Below, piece by piece: positions 18,427 through 55,892 of a stretch of 64,000 nucleotides of DNA (its first letter is position 1; the number at the start of each line of letters is the position of its first letter). The DNA is from Planctomycetota bacterium (GTDB lineage: Bacteria > Planctomycetota > Planctomycetia > JALXBF01). The notes under the pieces were generated by a model. That model was not told the origin of the DNA. It did not search any database and worked only from the letters and a program-made list of their open reading frames with translations. The position numbers were made by a program, and so were the translations under genes. The stretch covers positions 1 to 64,000 of the forward strand of contig JALXBF010000118.1 of the NCBI GenBank assembly GCA_026991575.1, in the 5' to 3' direction.

Positions 18427-18846
18427 ATGAGGCTGTGCATCCACATCCTCGCCTCAGTGTGCCTCGGGGCGCTCGCCGCGACTCTGTCCGACCTTGGCCT
18501 GGGACGCCTCCATCGTCCAGCTCGGGCGGAGCTCGAACGGGTGACCGGCAGCTCGTTCTACGAGACCGGGGCCTATCTGGTCATGTGTCCCGATCCGTTC
18601 AACTGCTTGGGCCAGGGCAACTGCGCGTCTCGATCCTGCCTGAGATGTCCGGTTGTCCTGAACATGCAAGTGGCCAGCGGCGGGTTCAACCGTATCATCG
18701 TGACTACCCAGCAATGTCCGCCGGGCGTGCAGCGGGGTGTCTGTGTCACTGGTCCCAATGGCTGCATGTGCGACGGTCCTACTTTCTCGAACGTGCCCTG
18801 CGGCTCGTACAACCAGATCGTGATGTTTGATGATCAGTCAGGCTAA
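18427..18846 (+). CDS. Exported Cys-rich mini-protein or RiPP-like precursor (locus A)
   Basis: RBS GGGGAGGA; hydrophobic N-terminus; ELERVTGS at residues 35-42; 10 Cys after that motif. Confidence 0.75.
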   Translation: MRLCIHILASVCLGALAATLSDLGLGRLHRPARAELERVTGSSFYETGAYLVMCPDPFNCLGQGNCASRSCLRCPVVLNMQVASGGFNRIIVTTQQCPPGVQRGVCVTGPNGCMCDGPTFSNVPCGSYNQIVMFDDQSG

Positions 18847-18899
18847 GGTCTGCAAGACGAACGGGGACCGCCTCTGGACTGGTGCGTGAGGTAAGGTGC

Positions 18900-20291
18900 A
18901 TGTCCGGAATAGCGCTACCTTTTGTTTTGTGTGCGTTGGCGTTGGTGCCGGCAGGGCAGTTTGTCTTGAGATCCGAGGGGAAGGAGTCGAACTGCGCGGT
19001 GGTGGCGTTAACCGTGTGCCTACGCCTGTGGGGACACGACGTCAGCTGTGCGGCCGTGGCGAAGGAACTGGGCTTGTCCGATGGGAGTCGCGGCAGTGCG
19101 GATGCGGTGTCGCTTGCAGACCTTGAGCGTGCGGCAAGGCGTTGGGAGCCAAACGTGGAAGCACGGAAGGCAGGCCTGGCCACGCTTGCACGCGTCCCAC
19201 TCCCGGCCGTCGCACATGGCGTAATCACCGCCGACGGTCAGCCAGAACGACTAACCGGCGGGCATTACGTCGTTCTGCTGCGGCTTGACGCAGAGCAGGC
19301 GGTCGTGGCAGATCCGCTTACGATGCAGGTGGCCACGGTGCCGAGGTCTAGATTTGCTGCCTTCTACGACGGGTATGTGCTGGCGAGGGAGCGAAGGGGG
19401 GCCCGCTGGGCTATCCTCTTCGTATGTTTCACCACACTGGCCGCCGTTCTGCTGAGGCTGGCAAGACGTCTCGGGATCAGGGAAACCATATCCATCGTGC
19501 TTGCGTCCGGCCTCGCCCTTGGTACGACTGCCGGCTGCAGCCGGGAGCCGACACCGTTCTCGCCAGCGGAGGAAGGGGAGAGCCCACTTGAAGCGCTCCC
19601 CGCACAGCTTGATCTGGGGACAGTGTCGATCGGTGAGACCGTGACCAGGAGTGTTCGCCTGCGGAACGTCAGCTCAAAGCGGCTGCGTCTGAAACTGGTC
19701 GATCCCGGCTGCGCATCGTGCACGGCAGAACTGGTCCAGACGGAGCTGTCACCGGGAGAAACGACGGAGCTGCGTGTCAGTGTGGCATCGGACCGCGCGC
19801 CGGCTGGCCCATTCTACCGGACGATCGGGGTGGCGACCCGGGAAGGTAAGGCAGTACTGACGATCGAAGTCTCTGCCCTTGTGGAAGGATTGAAAACGGA
19901 GCCGTACACCTTCCGCTGCGGCTCGAACGCGGAGACACCACCGCCTCTCAAGGGCAAACTTATCCTGGCCGAGCGACTTGCGTCAGACTCCGTCTCCCTG
20001 CCCGAGGTCGAACTGGAGGACCTGTTGGCCAAGCAGACGTCGACGTTCAAGCCCTGCATGGCCGTGGGTGGAGAAGCCACCTGGGGGCCGTGGCAGAAAG
20101 TGCGTCTGCCCATGCCTTGCTATGAGCGGGAGTTTACGGTCCCACTTGTCTGGGTCAAGGACGCTGCGTGTGTTCCCAGACAGGTCCTGGCCCACGTCGA
20201 ATGTACGGTACGCGGTCAGCGAATACGCCACCAGACACTACTGCGGATCGTTCCCGCTGTAACCGTGACGGCTCGCCCCGCGGACCGATGA
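18900..20291 (+). CDS. Exported C39-family cysteine peptidase fused through TM segments to a DUF1573 Ig-like domain
   Basis: Signal peptide; SNCAVVAL (Cys), GHYVVL (His), ADP (Asp, 16 residues after His); two hydrophobic segments; LDLGTV...RNVSSKRLRLKLVDPGCASC...LSPGET; no ABC domain. Confidence 0.8.
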   Translation: MSGIALPFVLCALALVPAGQFVLRSEGKESNCAVVALTVCLRLWGHDVSCAAVAKELGLSDGSRGSADAVSLADLERAARRWEPNVEARKAGLATLARVPLPAVAHGVITADGQPERLTGGHYVVLLRLDAEQAVVADPLTMQVATVPRSRFAAFYDGYVLARERRGARWAILFVCFTTLAAVLLRLARRLGIRETISIVLASGLALGTTAGCSREPTPFSPAEEGESPLEALPAQLDLGTVSIGETVTRSVRLRNVSSKRLRLKLVDPGCASCTAELVQTELSPGETTELRVSVASDRAPAGPFYRTIGVATREGKAVLTIEVSALVEGLKTEPYTFRCGSNAETPPPLKGKLILAERLASDSVSLPEVELEDLLAKQTSTFKPCMAVGGEATWGPWQKVRLPMPCYEREFTVPLVWVKDAACVPRQVLAHVECTVRGQRIRHQTLLRIVPAVTVTARPADR

Positions 20292-20317
20292 GCCGGCACG
20301 TCGGGGAGGTAGACGAG

Positions 20318-21436
20318 ATGAGTGGAAGCGAGGCTGTGGACAAGATCGACCGAAGGGCCGCTTGCCACATGCTATGGGTCACCGTGTGGACCCTCGGGAC
20401 GGGGTTGGCGATTGCGAGCCAGGCGCTGGCTGCCGAAACCGGGCCAAGACCTACCAACAAGCCAGCGAAGCTGTCGCTCGAACAACTGCGTGACTGTCTG
20501 TCGCGGTTCTACGCCCAACTGCACGCCTTGGACGTTGAGTACGAAGTCCTGGACAGCCCGGACTCAGAACCTCATCGGGTGCGATACGCCTTCAAGGGTG
20601 ACAAACGCTACACGGCGCGCACCGGTCCTGGCCAGGAGGAGCCGGAATTTGTTGGCGGCATCGTCAACGGCACGTACTGGTATCTGCAGCCGGAGCAGCT
20701 TACGGCCGGCATCGTGCCTGTCGAGCAGGCAGGCGACGCACTTCACTACGACGCATTTGTGGATGCCCTGCACATTGCCTTGGCGGATGAGGCGAAGTCG
20801 GAGGCGTACCTTCGTCCCCGGTTTCTGCCGCTGGCGCTGGACGCACCAACAGCGCAATGGAAGGTCCGCCCGAAGCTGGAAGAAGTCGATGGACATCTGT
20901 GCCATGTGCTGGAGGGCAAGGCTCTCACGCTGTGGGTCGACACGGAGCTCGGTTGTGCTCCGCGTTATGCCGAGTTGTACACGGAAGTGGATGGCACCAG
21001 GCGGCTTGTGGGATCGTACCACTACGCCGATCTGGCCGACGCTGGTAGCGGGGTCTATTTGCCACGGCTGGTGGAGATCACTGCGTACTCGGTTAGCGGC
21101 AAGGAGAGCAGGCCGAGCAGACGGCAGACCCTCAAAGTGTTACGTATCGCCGTCGGGGACGATGTGCATGACGATCTTTTCGAACCGGCGTTTCCCCGGG
21201 GCACGACGGTGCTCGATGCGACGAAAGGGGAACGGTACATCGCCGGGCCGGCCGACGCGGGCGTGACACGATTGACTGAACAGGCGCGCGACGCGCTGAC
21301 GCGTCCGGGCGCACGAGGGCCTGTCGGCCCCCGGCCGACTACGTGGATCGTTCTCGGGGCCGGTGTAGCGGTCGTGGCCATCGGGTTGCTGGCGCTGTGG
21401 ATCCGAAGCCGAGCCGGCGCTAGGGGCGGCTCGTAA
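20318..21436 (+). CDS. Exported protein with C-terminal TM anchor, possibly LolA-like fold (locus A partner)
   Basis: RBS GGGGAGG; signal ending ALA; EEVDGHLCHVLE...LWVDTELG...DDLFEPAFPRGTTVLD pattern; C-terminal TM plus basic residues. Confidence 0.7.
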   Translation: MSGSEAVDKIDRRAACHMLWVTVWTLGTGLAIASQALAAETGPRPTNKPAKLSLEQLRDCLSRFYAQLHALDVEYEVLDSPDSEPHRVRYAFKGDKRYTARTGPGQEEPEFVGGIVNGTYWYLQPEQLTAGIVPVEQAGDALHYDAFVDALHIALADEAKSEAYLRPRFLPLALDAPTAQWKVRPKLEEVDGHLCHVLEGKALTLWVDTELGCAPRYAELYTEVDGTRRLVGSYHYADLADAGSGVYLPRLVEITAYSVSGKESRPSRRQTLKVLRIAVGDDVHDDLFEPAFPRGTTVLDATKGERYIAGPADAGVTRLTEQARDALTRPGARGPVGPRPTTWIVLGAGVAVVAIGLLALWIRSRAGARGGS

Positions 21437-21484
21437 CGCGCATCCGGGGTGAGAACGGGCTGGCATCGCGGGGGATTGGTCAGC

Positions 21485-23554
21485 ATGTACGGGGAGTGGC
21501 GTCTTGCAAGAACGGTGATCTTTACGGCGGCCGTCGCCCTGCCGTTCTACTGGTGGTGGTTTGGACCTGTTGTCTCGTCGGACCAGTGGGTGGTCCGCGG
21601 CTTACTGGCGGGGGCGGTGTACGGCGCCGTGGCCTGGTACGCGTGGGTCCGTCGGTCGAGTTCCGGCTCTGGTCCGGATAACGATATCGTCGAGGGAGAA
21701 CGCGACGCCGATGCTCAGGCAAGTACGGCCATGCGGCTGGGTAGGCGGTTCGCCATTGGTGTTGCCGTATTGCACGTGCTGCTCGTTGTCTGGATTGCCT
21801 GGGCACACAGCCCCACAGCGCACGAGACGCGCTATCTCGTGGCCGGTCTGAGCCACTGGGAGACGGGTCATTTCGATGTAGCCCGCGTGAACCCACCACT
21901 GGTACGGCTGTGGCAGGCTCTTTTTCCCCTTCTGGCGGGCGCTAAGACGGACTGGTCTGTGTATCCAGCCGATGAGCCGACCGCTGGCCTTGGTGGCTAT
22001 CGGCCCGACCTGGTGATGACAGCACGCTGGATCAGGCTCAATGGTGAAGCAAGCCACTGGTATGTCTTTCTTGGCCGCTGCGCGAACATACCGTTGTCAC
22101 TGCTGGGGGCGTGGGTATGTTGGCGGTGGGCGTTGGAGCTCTTCGGGCTGCGCGCCGCATGCTGCGCGGTGACGCTGTGGTGCCTGTGCCCGTTCATGCT
22201 CACTTACGCTGCACTGACGAGCCCGGATCTTGGCGGCGCTGCACTCGGAATCGCAGCAGCCTACGTGTGCTGGCGCTGGGCACGCGTGCCCAACTGGTCC
22301 CGTGCCCTGGCGTTCGGCGGTGCGCTCGGTGCCGCGATCGCTGCACGCACGACGAACATTGCGCTGTTGCCCGCCTGCGTTGCCTGTGTCTTCACGTCGA
22401 GCCGACCGCGGCGGCGTCGGGCTCTGGAGCTTGCGGCTGCCATGGGCGTCGCACTGCTGGTGCTCAACGCAACCTACGGGTTCGAAGGCACGTTTCGGCC
22501 GCTGGGCTCGTACCAGTTCATCAGTCGCTTCTTCGCCGGGCATAACTTTTCCAGACCGGTGGTGGGCAATCGCTTCCGAGACCTGATCGGTTGGCTGCCG
22601 GTGCCCCTGCCAGAGGATTTCGTCAAGGGTGTTGATCTGCAGAAGGCCGACTTCGAGGGCGTATCGCACTGGCCATGGTCCTACATGGCTGGGGTCTGGC
22701 GCGAACAGGCGTGGTGGTACTTTTACCTGTATGCCCTTGCTGTCAAGCTGCCGGCGGGGTCGCTGATCCTCCTGGCGGCTGCCGTGATTGGATTTCTTGT
22801 CCGAAAGACGGCACGGTCGGATGTGATAGCAGAGGTACTGCTCGCCTGCGCCATTGCGGCCTTTTTCCTGTTGGTTAGCAGCCAAGCTGGGTTCAGCAGG
22901 GAATCACGTTACATCGTGGGGGTGATCCCGTTTCTCTATGTGTGGGGTAGCCGCCTCGCGATCAATCCATTGCGTCGATCAAAGGAGCCGGTGCTGTGGC
23001 CAGTTCTGGTGACGGTCACTGCCGTCAGCGTGCTCACCGTCTACCCGCACTGCTATTCCTATTTCAATGCCTTCGTAGGAGGTCCATTCGGTGGTCCCCG
23101 CTGTCTTTGGGGCGGTAATATCGACTCGGGCCAAGATGCGGTGTATTTGTCACGCTGGGCCAAAGCCCACCCGGAGGCTCGGCCACTGTTCGTTGTTGTC
23201 CAAGGGCAGACGGTCTATCCGATCCATTTAAGCGGCCTGCGTGACTGGCAACCGATCCCGGCCGACCCGCGCAGCCCGGAGCCACACCCGAAATACCCTC
23301 CCCGCCCGGGCTGGTACGCGATCAGCGTCAGCGAACTGTACTATCCATCGGATGCGTACGCATACCTGCGGCAGCTCAAGCCCGTCGCCTATGCCGGCTA
23401 CTCGATCTACATCTTTCACCTGACCGAGCGCGACGTTGAAGCGCTAAGGCCGCTGTTTGCTATGATCGAGTCGCAGTCCGAACCAGATGAGCCTCCCGGC
23501 TCGGACAGTGCGTCCGACACCGGCGATTCGCCGTCCGACACGTCGCGGGATTGA
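21485..23554 (+). CDS. Polytopic GT-C glycosyltransferase (ArnT/PMT-like, GT39/GT83) (locus A)
   Basis: HSPTAHETRYLVAGLSHW...VNPPLVRL, LPVPLPEDFVKGVDLQ, WWYFYLYALAVKLP, RYIV, SYFNAFVGGP...NIDSGQD; many TM helices. Confidence 0.85.
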   Translation: MYGEWRLARTVIFTAAVALPFYWWWFGPVVSSDQWVVRGLLAGAVYGAVAWYAWVRRSSSGSGPDNDIVEGERDADAQASTAMRLGRRFAIGVAVLHVLLVVWIAWAHSPTAHETRYLVAGLSHWETGHFDVARVNPPLVRLWQALFPLLAGAKTDWSVYPADEPTAGLGGYRPDLVMTARWIRLNGEASHWYVFLGRCANIPLSLLGAWVCWRWALELFGLRAACCAVTLWCLCPFMLTYAALTSPDLGGAALGIAAAYVCWRWARVPNWSRALAFGGALGAAIAARTTNIALLPACVACVFTSSRPRRRRALELAAAMGVALLVLNATYGFEGTFRPLGSYQFISRFFAGHNFSRPVVGNRFRDLIGWLPVPLPEDFVKGVDLQKADFEGVSHWPWSYMAGVWREQAWWYFYLYALAVKLPAGSLILLAAAVIGFLVRKTARSDVIAEVLLACAIAAFFLLVSSQAGFSRESRYIVGVIPFLYVWGSRLAINPLRRSKEPVLWPVLVTVTAVSVLTVYPHCYSYFNAFVGGPFGGPRCLWGGNIDSGQDAVYLSRWAKAHPEARPLFVVVQGQTVYPIHLSGLRDWQPIPADPRSPEPHPKYPPRPGWYAISVSELYYPSDAYAYLRQLKPVAYAGYSIYIFHLTERDVEALRPLFAMIESQSEPDEPPGSDSASDTGDSPSDTSRD

Positions 23555-43653: not shown

Positions 43654-44245
43654 CTACCACAGTCGGTTTCAGACGAGCGTTGACGCGCACGCTAGCCGAC
43701 GTCGGTTGACGTCCCGCGGTGCCTTTGGGGCTGGCCGCTCCCTGCGCGGTGGCTCATGAGCACAAGGACTTACGTTGAAGTACCGCTGACCGAACTTGAT
43801 CCTATTGTTCGACCCACGCACAATCGTTTGGTTCTTCTCAGTCGGCAGACACGGTTCGGGATTCGTGGTTTGCGGACCTGGGCAAGAGACTAGCCGGCCC
43901 GAACTGTTCTTCCGGCTCCCCCAATCGCCGAGTCCACAGGACCGTTCCTGCGAAGCGACCACGGGGGGCACGGCCACGAACCAGAACCAGCCAACGTAGG
44001 GCGAGGCCGTGGCCAAAGGTCCAAGGGATGTTCAGCTTTGTGTTAGGACAGGCCAATGCGTGGTGGACCGAGAATGTCGGCAGCTCCGGCCCAACCGGGC
44101 AGGAGGATCGGGCGGCCGGTTCCAGGTGCTGCATCGGGGCAGAGGCTGAATCGGTCCGTGGCTAGGTTCGCAAACGAGAGGCACGTTGCGATAGACTTTT
44201 TGCTTGGCTCCATTGGAGACGGCTGTCATGTTGTGGAGCAAGATC

Positions 44246-45799
44246 ATGATGACGAGCAGAGCGGGACGCGCACTTGGGCTGGTTGTCTGCCTGGTGGTTG
44301 TGAACCGGCTGGCGGCAGCGCAGGAGAGGATCGAGCCGCTGCAGCGGATTCCGGGGGCGAAACCGCGCAATGTGATCTTCATCCTCACGGACGATCACCG
44401 CTGGGACGCGTTCGGCTTCATGGGGCATCCGTTCCTGGAGACACCTCAGATGGACCGGCTTGCGCGCGAGGGAGTCCACTGTGCGAATGCGTTCGTCACG
44501 ACTTCGCTCTGCTCGCCCAGCCGGGCGTCGATCCTGACCGGCCTCTACGCGCACAACCACCGGGTGATCAACAACAACGAGCCGCTGCCGCCCGGTCTGA
44601 TCTACTTCCCGCAGTACCTTCAGAAGGCTGGCTACCAGACGGCATTCGTCGGCAAGTGGCACATGGGGCATACCGATGACAGTCCGAAGCCTGGGTTCGA
44701 CTTCTGGCTGAGTTTTCGGGGCCAGGGCTTCTACAACTCACCGCGGCCGAACTACACGCTGAACCTCAACGGCAAGCGGGTGCCTCAGACCGACTACATC
44801 ACCGACTTTCTCACGGACCACGCGATCGAATGGCTCAAGCAGCGAGACCGCTCGCGGCCGTTTTTCCTGTACCTCTCACACAAAGCCGTCCACGGTCCGT
44901 TCGAGCCAGCCAAGCGGCATCGCGGCCGGTACGCCAACCAACCGATGCCACGGCCGGTGACGCTGCACGAGACACCGGCCAACTATCTGCTCAAGCCACG
45001 CTGGGTACGGGATCAGCGGAATAGCTGGCACGGTGTGGACTTCCCGTACCACGGCCGACTCGGTTCTCTGGAGGAGCTCTACCGGCGATACTGCGAGACG
45101 CTGCTGGCGGTGGACGAGAGCGTTGGTCGGATCATGGACTATCTCAAGCAGGAAGGCATTCTGGACAGCACGATCATCATGTACATGGGCGACAACGGGT
45201 TCGGCTGGGGCGAGCACGGGCTGATCGACAAGCGCACGGCGTACGAATGGTCGATGCGTGTGCCGCTGTTGGTGCGCTGTCCGGAGCTGTTCAAGCCTGG
45301 CACGAAGCTGGAGCAGCTTGTAGCCAACATCGACATTGCGCCGACGATCCTTGAGGCTGCGGGGCTGCGAGCTCCGGAGCACATGGACGGCCGAAGCTTC
45401 CTGCCGCTGTTGCGCGGCGAGGAGGTGGCCTGGCGCGATGCGCTTCTGTACGAGTACTACTGGGAGCGGAACTTCCCGCAAACCCCGACCATGCACGCCA
45501 TTCGCACCGACCGGTTCAAGTACATCCACTACTATGGGATCTGGGACGTTGACGAACTGTACGATCTGAAGAACGACCCGCACGAACGGGTCAACCTGGC
45601 GTACGATCCGAAGTATCGCTCGGTTGTCCAGAGGCTTAATCGGCGGCTGTTTGAGCTCCTGGAGCAGACTGGCGGCATGTACATTCCGCTGTACCGCGAC
45701 CGAGGAGGCCAGCTGAATCTTCGGTCTCCCGAGGGCAGGGAGGCGGCCTCGTTTCCCAACCAGCTCATGGCTCCGTCTGTGCCGGACCGGCGCCGCTGA
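44246..45799 (+). CDS. Formylglycine-dependent (S1) sulfatase
   Basis: NVIFILTDD, CSPSRASILTG, GKWH, GDNG...GEHG..DKR; signal peptide. Confidence 0.95.
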   Translation: MMTSRAGRALGLVVCLVVVNRLAAAQERIEPLQRIPGAKPRNVIFILTDDHRWDAFGFMGHPFLETPQMDRLAREGVHCANAFVTTSLCSPSRASILTGLYAHNHRVINNNEPLPPGLIYFPQYLQKAGYQTAFVGKWHMGHTDDSPKPGFDFWLSFRGQGFYNSPRPNYTLNLNGKRVPQTDYITDFLTDHAIEWLKQRDRSRPFFLYLSHKAVHGPFEPAKRHRGRYANQPMPRPVTLHETPANYLLKPRWVRDQRNSWHGVDFPYHGRLGSLEELYRRYCETLLAVDESVGRIMDYLKQEGILDSTIIMYMGDNGFGWGEHGLIDKRTAYEWSMRVPLLVRCPELFKPGTKLEQLVANIDIAPTILEAAGLRAPEHMDGRSFLPLLRGEEVAWRDALLYEYYWERNFPQTPTMHAIRTDRFKYIHYYGIWDVDELYDLKNDPHERVNLAYDPKYRSVVQRLNRRLFELLEQTGGMYIPLYRDRGGQLNLRSPEGREAASFPNQLMAPSVPDRRR

Positions 45800-45895
45800 A
45801 CGGGTAGCGTGCCGGGACGTACTAACAGCAGTGAATCCGGCACAACCTCCAGATGACAGGCGCGCCTGGGCGCGTTCTGAGCGACGGCGAGAGAG

Positions 45896-47686
45896 ATGCC
45901 GCGCATGTTCTCGGACAAGGGGACTGTGCTCTCGCTAGCCATTGGGGCGCTACTGGCCGTAGGGGGCTGCTCGGCCGAGCCGCCACCTCGGGTGGACGAC
46001 TCGGCCGAGCCTCGCGCGGCCGCCGCGCCGGTGGCCGCGGCCACAGGCCGAGTGGCGCGGCGTGGTGCCGGCACGGTCCAGACGGAAACGAGCAATCCGG
46101 CGCCGTGGGTCCGGTTCCGGGACGAGGCGCGGCAGCGCGGCCTGACGTACGCCTGGCCGCGCAAGCCCCGTCCGATGCGCAACTTGGAGGCGTTTGGCAC
46201 AGGCTGCGCGGTGTTCGACTACGACAACGACGGCTGGCAGGACGTGCTGTTGGTTGGCGAACCCGCGCCGCTTTTGTATCGAAACCTGGGGCAGGGCCAG
46301 TTTGAGGACGTCAGTGAGGCGACGGGCCTGGCCCGCTTGCGCACGAACAACTGGAAAGGCGTGGCTATCGGTGATTACGACGGTGACGGCTGGTTGGACG
46401 TGTTCCTGGCCGGCTACCGTTGCCTGGCGCTGTTGCGAAACGTCGAGGGGAAGCGGTTTGAGGACGTCACCACAGCGGCAGGTTTTGACCGCGAGAACCG
46501 CAAGCATTGGGGAAGCGGAGCGGGCTTCATGGACCTGGACAACGACGGCGACCTGGACCTGGTGCTGCTGAACTACGTTGTGTTTGGCCCGAACGAGCGG
46601 CAGTACTGCGACTTTGGCGGCGTCAAATCGGGCTGTCCGCCTCAGACCTACCGACCGGAGTTCCCCGAGCTGTGGAAGAACGAGGGGGGAAGATTCGTCG
46701 AATGGACGGCACAGTCCGGGCTGGACGGGGCCCACGGCAAAGCACTGGTGCTGGCGTTCGCTGACATCGACAACGATGGCCTGATGGATTTCTACATCGG
46801 CAACGATGGCGAACCGGCCGAGTTGTGGATGAACAAGGGGGGATTGCGGTTCGAGGACATGGGGGCGCTCAGCGGGGTGTCTGCCGGAATGTACGGCAAC
46901 GCCATGGCCGCGATGTGTGCCGATTGGGGAGACTTCGACCGCGACGGTCATCTGGACTTGATCGTCAGCGACTTTAGCGGCGCACCCTACGCGGTGTTTC
47001 GCAACACAGGCGTCGGCCTGTTCCAGGAATACAGCGCGGCCGTCGGCGTGCGGAACGCTACGATGAACGCGCTGGGGTTCGGCGGTAAGTGGATCGATTT
47101 CGACAACGATGGCTGGCTGGACATCTCCTTCGTAAACGGTCATGTGTACGACAACGTGGAGGAGTTCGATCCGAGCACCCGGTTCCGGCAGCCGGTGATG
47201 CTGTTCTACAGCCATCAGGGCAAGCGGTTCACCGACCTCGTGCCGTTCATGCCGTCCGACGTAGGACGGCCTATCCTGGGACGCGGCCTCGCCAGCGGCG
47301 ATCTGGACAACGACGGTCGCGTGGATCTGGTTGCGGTCGATTACGAAGGACCGGTAATGGTGCTGTGGAACCACACCGAGACGGAGAACAACTGGATCAT
47401 GCTGGACGTGCGTGGGGAGGCTCCGAACACATTCGCGTACGGGGCGAAGGTGACCGTGGAGACGGACCAGGGGAGCTGCCTAGCATTTGTCTCGCCTGCG
47501 TCGAGTTATCTGTCGTCTTCAGATCCTCGCCTACACTTCGGGCTTGGCACGGCGTCCATTCGCAAGGTGCGGATCGAGTGGCGCAGCGGTACGGTACGCG
47601 AATTCGAGAACCTCACACCCAACCTGATCTACATCGTGCACGAGAACGGAGAGATCAAGCCCGCTGCCACTGGCGACCGCCGCTGA
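45896..47686 (+). CDS. CRTAC1/ASPIC-UnbV family lipoprotein (FG-GAP repeats)
   Basis: Lipobox VGGC; repeated DxDxDGxxD; C-terminal SYLSSSDPRLHFGLG. Confidence 0.9.
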   Translation: MPRMFSDKGTVLSLAIGALLAVGGCSAEPPPRVDDSAEPRAAAAPVAAATGRVARRGAGTVQTETSNPAPWVRFRDEARQRGLTYAWPRKPRPMRNLEAFGTGCAVFDYDNDGWQDVLLVGEPAPLLYRNLGQGQFEDVSEATGLARLRTNNWKGVAIGDYDGDGWLDVFLAGYRCLALLRNVEGKRFEDVTTAAGFDRENRKHWGSGAGFMDLDNDGDLDLVLLNYVVFGPNERQYCDFGGVKSGCPPQTYRPEFPELWKNEGGRFVEWTAQSGLDGAHGKALVLAFADIDNDGLMDFYIGNDGEPAELWMNKGGLRFEDMGALSGVSAGMYGNAMAAMCADWGDFDRDGHLDLIVSDFSGAPYAVFRNTGVGLFQEYSAAVGVRNATMNALGFGGKWIDFDNDGWLDISFVNGHVYDNVEEFDPSTRFRQPVMLFYSHQGKRFTDLVPFMPSDVGRPILGRGLASGDLDNDGRVDLVAVDYEGPVMVLWNHTETENNWIMLDVRGEAPNTFAYGAKVTVETDQGSCLAFVSPASSYLSSSDPRLHFGLGTASIRKVRIEWRSGTVREFENLTPNLIYIVHENGEIKPAATGDRR

Positions 47687-53494: not shown

Positions 53495-54025
53495 CTACCT
53501 GCGCTTCGCCTCCGCGCCGGCGGCCGCCGCATCAGCGGGCTGCTCGCTGTCATTGCCGCCCTGGCCCCCACTCCGAGCTTCCGATGTCACGTCATCGGAC
53601 GTTGGTCCCTCGGCGGCAGTCACCACGATCGTCCCCTGAACCACGTACAGCTTCCGCCCGTCGGTCACATAGACCTCCACAGGGTACGAAAAGCTCTCCC
53701 CAGCACGCGGCGTATGAACACGAAAGCGGATCGCCGTACTTTGTTGCGGAGCGAGCCGGACCGGCACGCTGCTCACCCTCCGCATTGCTCACCCGCCGTT
53801 CGTCCCGACCACCACAACCTCCTCCTCGGCCACGTTCCGCACGGTCAGCTCCACCACCATCGGTTCCTCCGGAACCGGCGCACGCACTTGTACCTCAGAC
53901 GGGTCAAGCACAGCGGGCAGCAAGCTGCTCGGCAGCCAGGCTGCCACACCGGCAACGAACACGCCAGCCAAAACCATCGCCGCCCAACCGGGTATCGACT
54001 GGATCAGAAAGTTAACCCTCCGCAT
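53495..54025 (-). CDS. Membrane-anchored DUF1573-like Ig-fold protein, candidate selenoprotein (Sec79 encoded by TGA 53789-53791)
   Basis: ORFs 53789-54046 and 53495-53785 are in the same frame; the TGA aligns without gaps to the Cys of GCA in the locus A DUF1573 domain; SECIS-like hairpin follows; RBS GGAGG before ATG 54025. Confidence 0.7.
53745..53788 (-). promoter_or_regulatory. Candidate bacterial SECIS element
   Basis: After TGA: lower stem TGCGG/CCGCA and upper stem AGCG-T-GCCG-GTC-CGGC-T-CGCT; apical GGTC 26 nt from the TGA. Confidence 0.6.
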
Positions 54026-55892
54026 CGTAACGCACCTCCAATACACGCCTCGAACCCTTCTGCACCGAATCGCCCGGAGCAGACTCTTGCGTCTGACGGG
54101 GCTTCGCTGTCCCCCACAGGATCCGGGCCAGGCGGGCCGATTCTTCAGGCGTAACCTCGTAGACTAGCACGGCTGCTCCCAACGTCGCAATGGGACGCAT
54201 GTGGCGCGTGTACTCGATCACACGAGACGTCGGCACGTTGGGATAAAGTGGCATGTATCGGTGGGGATCGATGATGTAGATCCCCGCCGGCGGTCCCTCG
54301 CCCCGGAACTCATCCGGCGGCAGCGGCCGCGGCACATCGATCGGCCAGTGGCTTCCTAGCCCGCAGGGATCCTGAAACAGTGCGTACACTGTGCGGCCTG
54401 CATCGCGGTAGCGCTGCACCAACTCTCGTATGAAAAAGTAGTCTTCCCCACCAGAAACCGACGGGCCGGCGAGCTGCAGATAGCCGGACTTGCTGCCGCC
54501 CACCAACTCGTTCAGATGTCCGTGAAAGTGCGGCGCTACACTGGCCACGGACCAGATCTGCCAGCTGAGCAGCCCGGCCAGCGCCAACGGGCGCCACAGC
54601 CCGAGGCGCCAGCCGGCGGCCAGCCCGCTCGTCCACACGATGAGGTACGGCAGCACCGGTGTCGTATACCGCAAGTGAACAGTGAGCGTCTTGTGGTACG
54701 AAAGCGTAGCCAGGACCAGCAAGACGGGGCCAAGTTCCAGCAACGTGGCACGTAGGGTGCCACCGCGCGGGCATAGTAACGCCGCGATCGTTCTCCACGC
54801 AAAGCACAGCCAGAACGCAACCGGCAACTTCGCCATCAGTCCGTACAGGTAGAAATACCATACACCTCCGTTGTGACGTCTACCTGCCACCCACGTGTCC
54901 CGAGGCACCCTGGTATCATGCAGTTGGAGATCCAGCCCAAGCACATAAGCATCGGGCAGCGGCACCGGGAGCCTGTTTACGACACCGCCCGTCACCGTTG
55001 CAGCCAGCGTTTGCAACCGGCGCAGCGAATCGCTACGAAACTGGTACGACCCCAGCGTTTGCAGGCGAGCGGTCCCCGCGTAACCGCAATACACGACCGT
55101 GCAGGCAACAGCCGCGGCAAAGACCAGCAGCACTGTACGCTCCAGTGCCCGTTGACGCTGGCGGCGCACCACGGCGATCCCTACCTCAACCAGCTCAACA
55201 ACCAGGTAAAACACTGCCAGCAACAGCACGGTGAACTTGGTCAACAGCCCCAGACCAACGGTGAGCCCGAACGCAGCCGCTCGCCCCGTACCAGGCTGTT
55301 CTCGGTAGCGGAAGTACGCCCAGCCGGCTGCCGCCGCCATCGCCGCCGTCAGACCGTCCGGGTTCAGGCACCCGGACCAATGCAGCAGTTCGGGATTCAG
55401 CACGTAGAACAAGACAGCTAGCAGGCCCGCTGCAGGCCCATGCGCTTTCCTGCTCCAAGACCACACGGCAATCGGCCCGATCCCGCAGGCAAGGGCAAGC
55501 GCGACGCGCGCCCACCTGAGCCAGCTCAGCGACTCGGGCAGGTTAGCCGAAAACGTAGCAATGGCAAACGGGAAGACGGTGTACGCATCCGGTCGGTCGA
55601 CGTAGGTGGTCCAGCTTTCCCAGAGGTTCTTTCCCTCCGGCACGAGCCAGACCGAACCCAGCCCGGCCACGATCCGTGACAGCGGTGGGTTAACCGGGTA
55701 AATGTCAAACCGGCTCAACTGGTAAATCGCGTAGGCCGAACACAGGTGCGCCGGCTCATTTACGTTCGGCGCGTGGACGGTTGCTGACCAGAGCACCGCA
55801 GCAAGCCACAGGGCCACCAATGTGCCGACGGTCACCCGCTCAAGAACGGACGGCTGTGCTACAGTTCCTCGTGCGCCTGCGTCAGGGCTCAT
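54012..55892 (-). CDS. Polytopic GT-C glycosyltransferase (ArnT/PMT-like) (locus B)
   Basis: RBS GAGGAGGG; HAPNVNEPAHL...VNPPLSR, LLTKFT, LPVPLPDAYVLGLDLQ, WYFYLYGLMAKLP, NELVGG; paralog of 21485-23554. Confidence 0.85.
   Translation of the reverse strand: MSPDAGARGTVAQPSVLERVTVGTLVALWLAAVLWSATVHAPNVNEPAHLCSAYAIYQLSRFDIYPVNPPLSRIVAGLGSVWLVPEGKNLWESWTTYVDRPDAYTVFPFAIATFSANLPESLSWLRWARVALALACGIGPIAVWSWSRKAHGPAAGLLAVLFYVLNPELLHWSGCLNPDGLTAAMAAAAGWAYFRYREQPGTGRAAAFGLTVGLGLLTKFTVLLLAVFYLVVELVEVGIAVVRRQRQRALERTVLLVFAAAVACTVVYCGYAGTARLQTLGSYQFRSDSLRRLQTLAATVTGGVVNRLPVPLPDAYVLGLDLQLHDTRVPRDTWVAGRRHNGGVWYFYLYGLMAKLPVAFWLCFAWRTIAALLCPRGGTLRATLLELGPVLLVLATLSYHKTLTVHLRYTTPVLPYLIVWTSGLAAGWRLGLWRPLALAGLLSWQIWSVASVAPHFHGHLNELVGGSKSGYLQLAGPSVSGGEDYFFIRELVQRYRDAGRTVYALFQDPCGLGSHWPIDVPRPLPPDEFRGEGPPAGIYIIDPHRYMPLYPNVPTSRVIEYTRHMRPIATLGAAVLVYEVTPEESARLARILWGTAKPRQTQESAPGDSVQKGSRRVLEVRYDAEG

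Follow-up and report, generated by a model that had tools for sequence, protein, structure and literature searches.

The stretch of Planctomycetota DNA analysed here (positions 1 to 64,000 of contig JALXBF010000118.1, assembly GCA_026991575.1; in the following called the window) carries on its minus strand, at 54025–53495, a gene that annotation divides in two. The frame comprises 176 codons from ATG 54025, with an alternative GTG start at 54046 and a TAG stop at 53497–53495, and its sole break is a TGA at 53791–53789, i.e., codon 79 counted from the ATG and codon 86 counted from the GTG. Translation with table 11 yields two open reading frames (ORFs) of 85 aa (54046–53789) and 96 aa (53785–53495). 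Likewise, protein databases hold the gene only as the halves P0006 (78 aa) and P0005 (90 aa), and a word search for full-length homologs of 100–321 aa found none. We consider it very probable that 54025–53495 is a single gene in which UGA is read as selenocysteine (Sec), as an earlier sequence-only reading of the DNA had proposed; its observation that the ORF track splits one gene was exact, as were the read-through peptide and the coordinates, with the TGA inside 53495–54025. Around the TGA the peptide reads VVVVGTNGG-U-AMRRVSSVPVRLAP, and there is no Cys residue anywhere in the read-through protein. The product consists of an N-terminal membrane helix (approximately residues 2–29), a DUF1573-like Ig/PapD-like beta-sandwich (residues 38–136) and a disordered acidic tail. 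A copy of its C-terminal part only (residues 116–183, 71% identical) is found elsewhere in the same genome, on the minus strand at G000:C122:1094–1291 (locus L004); it covers the end of the sandwich and the acidic tail and lacks both the sandwich itself and the TGA. It looks like the remnant of a partial duplication, and the database protein P0007 resembles it.

The TGA is not peculiar to the window. When the read-through protein was searched against its own genome (4.96 Mb in 191 contigs), paralogs were found with one in-frame TGA each, at the same place in all: VTIVGAHRG-U-GIRLVSSVPVRLAP on contig C28, VTIIGAPRG-U-GIRAVVSAPVRLAP on C64 and LTVLGGDPG-U-GARLEAEFPLRLAP on C129. A profile built from these three and the window copy retrieved a fifth copy from the genome (C129:10562–10939), which brings the number of TGA copies to five (the window on C118, C28, C64 and two on C129), as well as one TGA copy in G001, a genome of the sister genus and the only other genome of the family that was searched. 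The profile matches cross the TGA and span positions 2–150. A seventh TGA form (L068) is located on a metagenome contig, and the seven genes are mutually 16–45% identical. Two subfamilies can be told apart among them, subfamily 1 with three genes and subfamily 2 with four. A metagenome scan for subfamily 1 gave 283 pattern matches, none of which was a relative, while one for subfamily 2 gave two loci, one being the contig of the sister genome itself. Two other genomes of the order (98% and 80% complete) had no match to the paralog profile.

Outside the TGA forms the column is almost always occupied by Cys. In a sample of the class, 80 of 401 genomes had a profile match at E ≤0.001, and an alignment of the 30 best loci with those found earlier (38 rows) has TGA at residue 79 (53791–53789) in 6 rows, Cys in 31 and Val in a single one, which is a doubtful weak row from the own genome. 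Cys is thus found in 31 of the 32 rows without TGA; two of the Cys rows come from the own genome and 29 from 28 other genomes. Residue 79 (Cys or Sec) and N64 are the sole invariant columns in an alignment of 37 sequences. Among about 100 weaker matches in the class no internal stop was listed save in three rows, where the stops are located elsewhere. It had been expected that homologs would have either TGA or Cys here and be conserved to the left and right of it, and this was borne out. The gap-free alignment to locus A, a Cys-type gene of the window described below, with U placed on C, was likewise reproduced in the profile alignment (row L028). The pairwise match between the two is weak (about 12 of 41 identities, E 0.027), and the match obtained with the four-paralog profile has an E-value of 2.4e-5.

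A protein library of 1.84 billion representatives gives a similar picture. Six of the best hits to the profile end exactly at position 74, the last residue before the Sec (P0008, P0009, P0006, P0010, P0019, and P0047), two further matches are C-terminal pieces, and full-length Cys forms appear only from E 2e-13. As P0010, P0019, P0047 and the C-terminal piece P0011 differ from the copies of the own genome, further relatives are split at the same site. One Cys-type homolog deserves separate mention. Locus L073 (G209:C24:11354–11656, minus strand) is DUF1573-like and keeps the family Cys, but an in-frame TGA (ILAD-U-PATIPPG) follows eight codons later, in a column where hydrophobic residues are the rule. 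This TGA could mark a pseudogene or a further site of recoding, or it could be an error in the sequence.

The sequence following the TGA is under purifying selection. For the C28 and C64 copies the ratio of nonsynonymous to synonymous substitution rates (dN/dS) is 0.28 (0.29/1.05) before the TGA and 0.22 (0.21/0.96) after it, so that selection beyond the codon, which the sequence-only reading had named as a test, was indeed found. Three contigs from public sequencing runs cover the TGA; one of them, 98% alike, belongs to a different sample of the same study, and the other two, about 90% alike, come from a different study. The nearest differences listed for these contigs are at 53771, 53786, 53795, and 53797; among the differences listed none is at 53789–53791 and none is inside the hairpin at 53750–53770 discussed below. 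These contigs lend weak support to the conservation of the TGA. A plain nonsense mutation, by which TGC or TGT became TGA and the gene died, had been named as the alternative. It would take a single base change, and gene callers do split the gene, but it is contradicted by a TGA column common to seven genes of 16–45% identity, by the dN/dS of 0.22 past the TGA together with synonymous conservation at the hairpin, and by the absence of any listed change of the TGA in the relatives from another study. Nor are the frames past the TGA decayed in most of the copies. We regard a pseudogene as exceedingly improbable.

The predicted fold also extends across the TGA. AlphaFold2, run on the 37-row alignment, returned a mean predicted local distance difference test (pLDDT) score of 82 and a single beta-sandwich at residues 38–136, with ten-residue block means of 88–97 over residues 41–140. 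In the model, residue 79 is placed in a turn between strands 70–77 and 81–83, a helix at residues 2–29 precedes the sandwich and a disordered tail follows it. The Foldseek neighbours of the sandwich are the Ig-like domain of VesB, the ASH/PapD-like domains of HYDIN and CEP192, and MSP domains (E 3e-6 to 1e-4). The helix, the sandwich and the Ig/PapD-like matches are in agreement with the membrane-anchored Ig-fold protein that had been proposed from the sequence. They also bear on the idea that the locus comprises two separate small genes, a membrane piece of 78–85 aa and a piece of 96 aa, each made independently. The window copy does have an ATG one codon past the TGA, and the databases list both pieces. 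This ATG is, however, missing in the C28, C64, and C129 copies, the TGA cuts mid-way through one beta-sandwich domain of the model, and the Cys homologs are single polypeptides; two genes at this place are therefore hardly credible.

Downstream of the TGA the transcript can form a hairpin that resembles a selenocysteine insertion sequence (SECIS). As predicted by the sequence-only reading a hairpin with a GGUC apex exists here, at 53770–53750 on the minus strand (AGCG-U-GCCG / GUC / CGGC-U-CGCU), with two stems of 4 bp around a U.U mismatch. The apical loop GUC (53761–53759) starts 27 nt past the A of the UGA, and the apex G30-G31-U32-C33 reads GGUC. The three genes of subfamily 1 share the consensus AGCG-(U/C)-GCCG GUC CGGC-U-CGCU with eight invariant pairs (−11.8 kcal/mol) and the loop at +31 from the U of UGA, while the consensus of the four genes of subfamily 2 is AGCGGA GUU UCCGCU with the loop at +24, one copy having AGUUC from +23. 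According to a review, a bacterial SECIS (bSECIS) has a loop of 3–9 nt, a stem of 4–16 bp, a spacing of 16–37 nt and a folding energy of at most −7.5 kcal/mol, with G in the first two loop positions, usually followed by G or U (PMC13188914). The window hairpin falls within these limits, as do those of all six Sec genes that were included (L068 was left out), compared to 3 of 32 homologs without Sec (Cys or Val); the six genes represent two clades and are not independent trials. The coding sequence at the hairpin, taken as 5–14 codons past the TGA, is also conserved at synonymous sites. Among columns with identical residues the same codon is used in 6 of 8 at the hairpin and 7 of 36 elsewhere in subfamily 1 (Fisher p 0.005), and in 4 of 7 and 2 of 21, respectively, in subfamily 2 (p 0.02). 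Hairpin position, loop sequence and synonymous-site conservation are thus above chance.

Comparison with the SECIS of E. coli fdhF shows both likeness and difference. Both are hairpins within the coding sequence just past the UGA, with a small apical loop containing G-U and a spacing of 16–37 nt, and the GGUC apex of the window hairpin is presumably also that of fdhF. In fdhF the loop is located at about +23. The window hairpin, on the other hand, has its loop at +31 (+24 or +23 in the other subfamily), a loop of only 3 nt, a U.U internal mismatch and no bulged U, and it is described by no Rfam model.

The genome encodes a complete Sec machinery. A compact operon of selD, selB, selA and the gene for tRNA-Sec is located at G000:C184:25019–29791 (loci L008, L013, and L014), where selD (358 bits), selB (383 bits) and selA (559 bits) each score above the curated cut-off and the tRNA-Sec with anticodon UCA was found both by ARAGORN and by Rfam RF01852 (73.3 bits against a cut-off of 47). 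The search for selA, selB, selD and tRNA-Sec on which the proposal of a hidden selenoprotein depended was therefore successful. The selD gene itself has one in-frame TGA, in the active-site loop SCAG-U-AGKL, followed by a hairpin with a 7-bp stem and a GGU loop at +36. As selA is present in the sister genome and also in 3 of 4 genomes with Cys forms that were tested, Sec in the DUF1573-like protein is a lineage-specific choice rather than a mere consequence of the Sec trait. The column shared between TGA and Cys, the selection past the TGA and the machinery all agree with a hidden selenoprotein. On this basis the UGA at 53791–53789 would be decoded as Sec by the organism's own SelB and tRNA-Sec, guided by the hairpin 18–39 nt further on in the mRNA.

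Several observations weigh against decoding as Sec. The stability of the hairpin does not exceed that of shuffled sequences (z = −0.6), the window copy folded alone prefers a different register, and the Cys homologs fold about equally stably; folding energy was for these reasons rejected as a discriminator. No covariation support was found in either subfamily, which is explained by all stem pairs being invariant, and an Rfam scan of the hairpin region returned no family at E ≤10. The seven Sec genes moreover form two clades and so represent at most a few independent events. In a quick maximum-likelihood tree each Sec clade has a support of 99 and their union into one clade a support of 63, so that a single origin of Sec and two separate ones are both compatible with the tree. 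Finally, among the public runs listed no RNA run covers the stretch; the insertion of Sec is what we infer from the DNA. It is conceivable that the UGA is instead read through without selenium, by a near-cognate tRNA (Trp, Cys, or Arg) or as regulated termination that yields a short and a long product. Stimulatory hairpins past leaky stop codons exist in other systems, and an ordinary stability of the hairpin together with selenium that is deduced rather than detected would be compatible with this. But the codon replaces an invariant Cys, the hairpin fits SelB-type constraints and resembles that of the organism's own selD, the Sec machinery is complete, and the DUF1573 family already has catalogued Sec members. 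Read-through without selenium is accordingly very improbable, and decoding as Sec is preferred.

Within DUF1573 the protein is divergent. The read-through protein scores 13.6 bits against Pfam DUF1573 (PF07610; E 0.07), below the gathering cut-off of 26.1, and taken alone it has no PF07610 match at E ≤0.01. However, 30 of 37 aligned relatives match PF07610 at this threshold, and by transitivity, together with the PapD-like/ASH beta-sandwich fold, the window protein is a DUF1573 homolog. Three Sec forms searched against NCBIfam gave no selenoprotein or DUF1573 model at E ≤0.1. The Cys of the family column is commonly the first of a C-x-C motif (25 of 31 Cys rows), whereas Cys at +2 is found in none of the seven Sec forms, the motif in the window being U-A-M. 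The nearest Cys forms by E-value also lack Cys at +2 (L030 with CGR and L033 with CGL).

DUF1573 is listed among prokaryotic selenoprotein families, with the motif UGC, in tables of two reviews (PMC9312934; PMC13188914), which both credit a 2007 study of the symbionts of Olavius algarvensis (PMC1976440). The passages available from that study do not contain the word DUF1573 (PMC1976440), and judged from the order of the tables the catalogued protein is probably its 'OS_HP2'. As far as these sources describe it, the catalogued selenoprotein and the window form share the fold family, a Sec at the position of the first Cys of C-x-C and an in-frame bacterial SECIS, and both are small envelope proteins of unassigned function. 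The catalogued form has U-G-C, whereas the window form has a lone Sec in U-A-M and falls below the Pfam and NCBIfam cut-offs. The window form further differs by its membrane anchor, by five paralogs per genome, by two types of SECIS and by the gene cassette described below, with MauE, 10-Cys and GT-C proteins. DUF1573 is thus already known as a selenoprotein family, and the window gene is neither a new family nor a new kind of selenoprotein. What is new is a divergent planctomycete clade with a lone Sec, two SECIS types and a duplicated five-gene cassette. A single-selenol form is thereby added to the DUF1573 selenoproteins, one in which the lack of a partner Cys anywhere in the window protein limits the possible chemistry. 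Annotation pipelines cut the window gene and all its paralogs in two, and as the databases keep only the halves, the real protein and its five-copy expansion in a hydrothermal-vent planctomycete are invisible to proteome-based work.

Five tightly packed genes of the minus strand form a cassette that ends with the Sec gene. The first (58574–57789) encodes a MauE-family membrane protein (Pfam MauE, PF07291; 27.8 bits against a cut-off of 27) that has C-G-C in its membrane part and a fused C-terminal domain with CxxC (WCPRC), both of which are invariant in the C28 paralog. As Pfam returned no thioredoxin or other family for the CxxC domain, it is the motif only that suggests a thioredoxin-fold partner of the MauD/TlpA kind. 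The second gene (57740–57417) encodes a protein of 107 aa with an N-terminal hydrophobic segment, which is the Cys-rich product referred to by the sequence-only reading. It is 44% identical to its C28 paralog, with ten outer Cys residues and one Cys of the hydrophobic segment invariant, and it has no Pfam family. The third gene (57163–56039) encodes a protein of 374 aa in which the N-terminus resembles a signal sequence and the C-terminus carries a membrane anchor; it has no Pfam or NCBIfam family. Its nearest Atlas clusters are unnamed Planctomycetota proteins, and a lead to LolA/TP_0789-like proteins with a score of 0.81 was not relied on. Paralogs of this protein adjoin the Sec genes on C28 and C64. 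The fourth gene (55943–54012) encodes a multi-pass GT-C glycosyltransferase of 643 aa (Pfam PMT_2, E 4.4e-8, 33.9 bits against a cut-off of 26.1), the TAA stop of which overlaps the start of the Sec gene. The whole cassette is found again on C28 in the same order, with 33–55% identity and gaps of 1–31 nt, the GT-C paralog occupying the same position at 55% identity. On C64 it is the unknown protein of the 374-aa type that is kept beside the Sec gene.

This arrangement invites a proposal for function. The product would be a single-pass membrane protein with the sandwich facing the periplasm, as judged by the positive-inside rule, and Sec79 would take the place of the family's invariant Cys in a turn that joins two strands. 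As the second Cys of C-x-C is missing and the window copy is otherwise free of Cys, an intermolecular partner is suggested, and the lone selenol may work via an intermolecular selenenylsulfide, or a selenenic acid, with this partner. The likeliest partners would be products of the same operon, namely the membrane protein with its MauE and CxxC parts and the 10-Cys protein that is exported, and the likely setting the redox handling of an envelope protein that is perhaps also modified by the GT-C neighbour. DUF1573 domains repeatedly occur together with small, exported proteins rich in Cys and with CxxC/MauE partners, which argues for such a redox role, and the suggestion that the protein is a redox or disulfide catalyst for the Cys-rich product would fit the conserved operon. 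We tentatively favour thiol-selenol redox chemistry in the cell envelope over metal binding, at somewhat less than an even chance, and hold the mechanism with a redox partner to be about equally plausible.

Some findings speak against this functional proposal. The CxxC domain alone matches no Pfam family at E ≤1, the cassette was not found beside Cys-form homologs at ten loci fetched from other genomes, with the exception of a weak MauE match in the sister genome, and subfamily 2 is located in a different neighbourhood. A genuine selenoprotein could also use its lone selenolate as a ligand for a soft metal, e.g., Cu(I), as other DUF1573-like proteins may use their C-x-C motif, and the MauE, Cys-rich and GT-C neighbours would then be unrelated to the chemistry. 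The Foldseek neighbours of the beta-sandwich offer no known catalytic scaffold, and a lone Sec without a resolving Cys suits ligation as well as catalysis. On the other hand no gene for copper or another metal was found by Pfam among the ORFs scanned around the cassette, conserved neighbours with CGC, CxxC and ten Cys residues point to thiol chemistry, and a single ligand is poor for a metal unless the protein oligomerises. We rate metal ligation as unlikely and prefer the redox proposal.

A related system is known. MauE and MauD are required for the disulfide-rich MauA light chain of methylamine dehydrogenase. The cassette is alike in that a MauE membrane protein with a CxxC domain is found beside a small Cys-rich exported protein. 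It differs in that there are no genes for MauA, MauB or tryptophan tryptophylquinone (TTQ) formation, that MauE and the CxxC domain form one polypeptide, of which Pfam does not recognise the CxxC part, and that a GT-C protein, an unknown anchored protein and a selenoprotein are added. A literature search pairing MauE with selenocysteine gave nothing relevant among the papers listed. It is tempting to speculate that the lone-Sec sandwich provides the catalytic selenol of an extracytoplasmic maturation system, in which it forms or shuffles the five disulfides of a GT-C-glycosylated 10-Cys protein and is recycled by a MauE-CxxC relay. We give this full scheme a slighter chance still than metal ligation, but if true it would represent a selenium-dependent catalyst of oxidative folding that does not have the thioredoxin fold, in an undescribed system of Planctomycetes. 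The link to a conserved cassette of MauE, Cys-rich and glycosyltransferase proteins in any case provides a testable handle on the function of DUF1573.

The neighbourhood of subfamily 2 was seen at two loci, L072 (G000:C129:1–14964) and L058 (G001:C343). The Sec genes of this subfamily have a conserved H-C-G-S-W motif just past the membrane helix. Next to them are genes for an Lnt-like CN hydrolase, which scores below the Pfam cut-off, and for a secreted protein (about 300 aa), and there are two large genes that are GT2-like and GT-C-like as judged by eye only; a MauE-like gene is also found near the Sec genes by a weak tblastn match. The locus may serve to modify lipids or glycans of the envelope. 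No homology was seen between the unknown partner proteins of subfamilies 1 and 2 (hhalign probability 5%, no phmmer match).

Elsewhere in the window a Cys-type cassette is located at 18427–23554 on the plus strand and comprises genes for a Cys-rich protein, a C39-DUF1573 fusion, an unknown protein of 422 aa and a GT-C protein. The Cys-rich protein (18427–18846) is exported and has 139 aa. Beside it is locus A (18882–20291), in which a Peptidase_C39 domain (3.3e-13) is followed by a membrane segment and a DUF1573 domain (1.4e-9) with the motif C-A-S-C. The GT-C gene (21449–23554) matches PMT_2 (7.6e-7). That a C39 leader peptidase is fused to DUF1573 may indicate that a Cys-rich peptide is processed here. 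At 44204–47686 on the plus strand a sulfatase gene (PF00884, E 4e-64) is followed by one for an FG-GAP/ASPIC-UnbV repeat protein; this pair is ordinary planctomycete content and is unrelated to the Sec gene.

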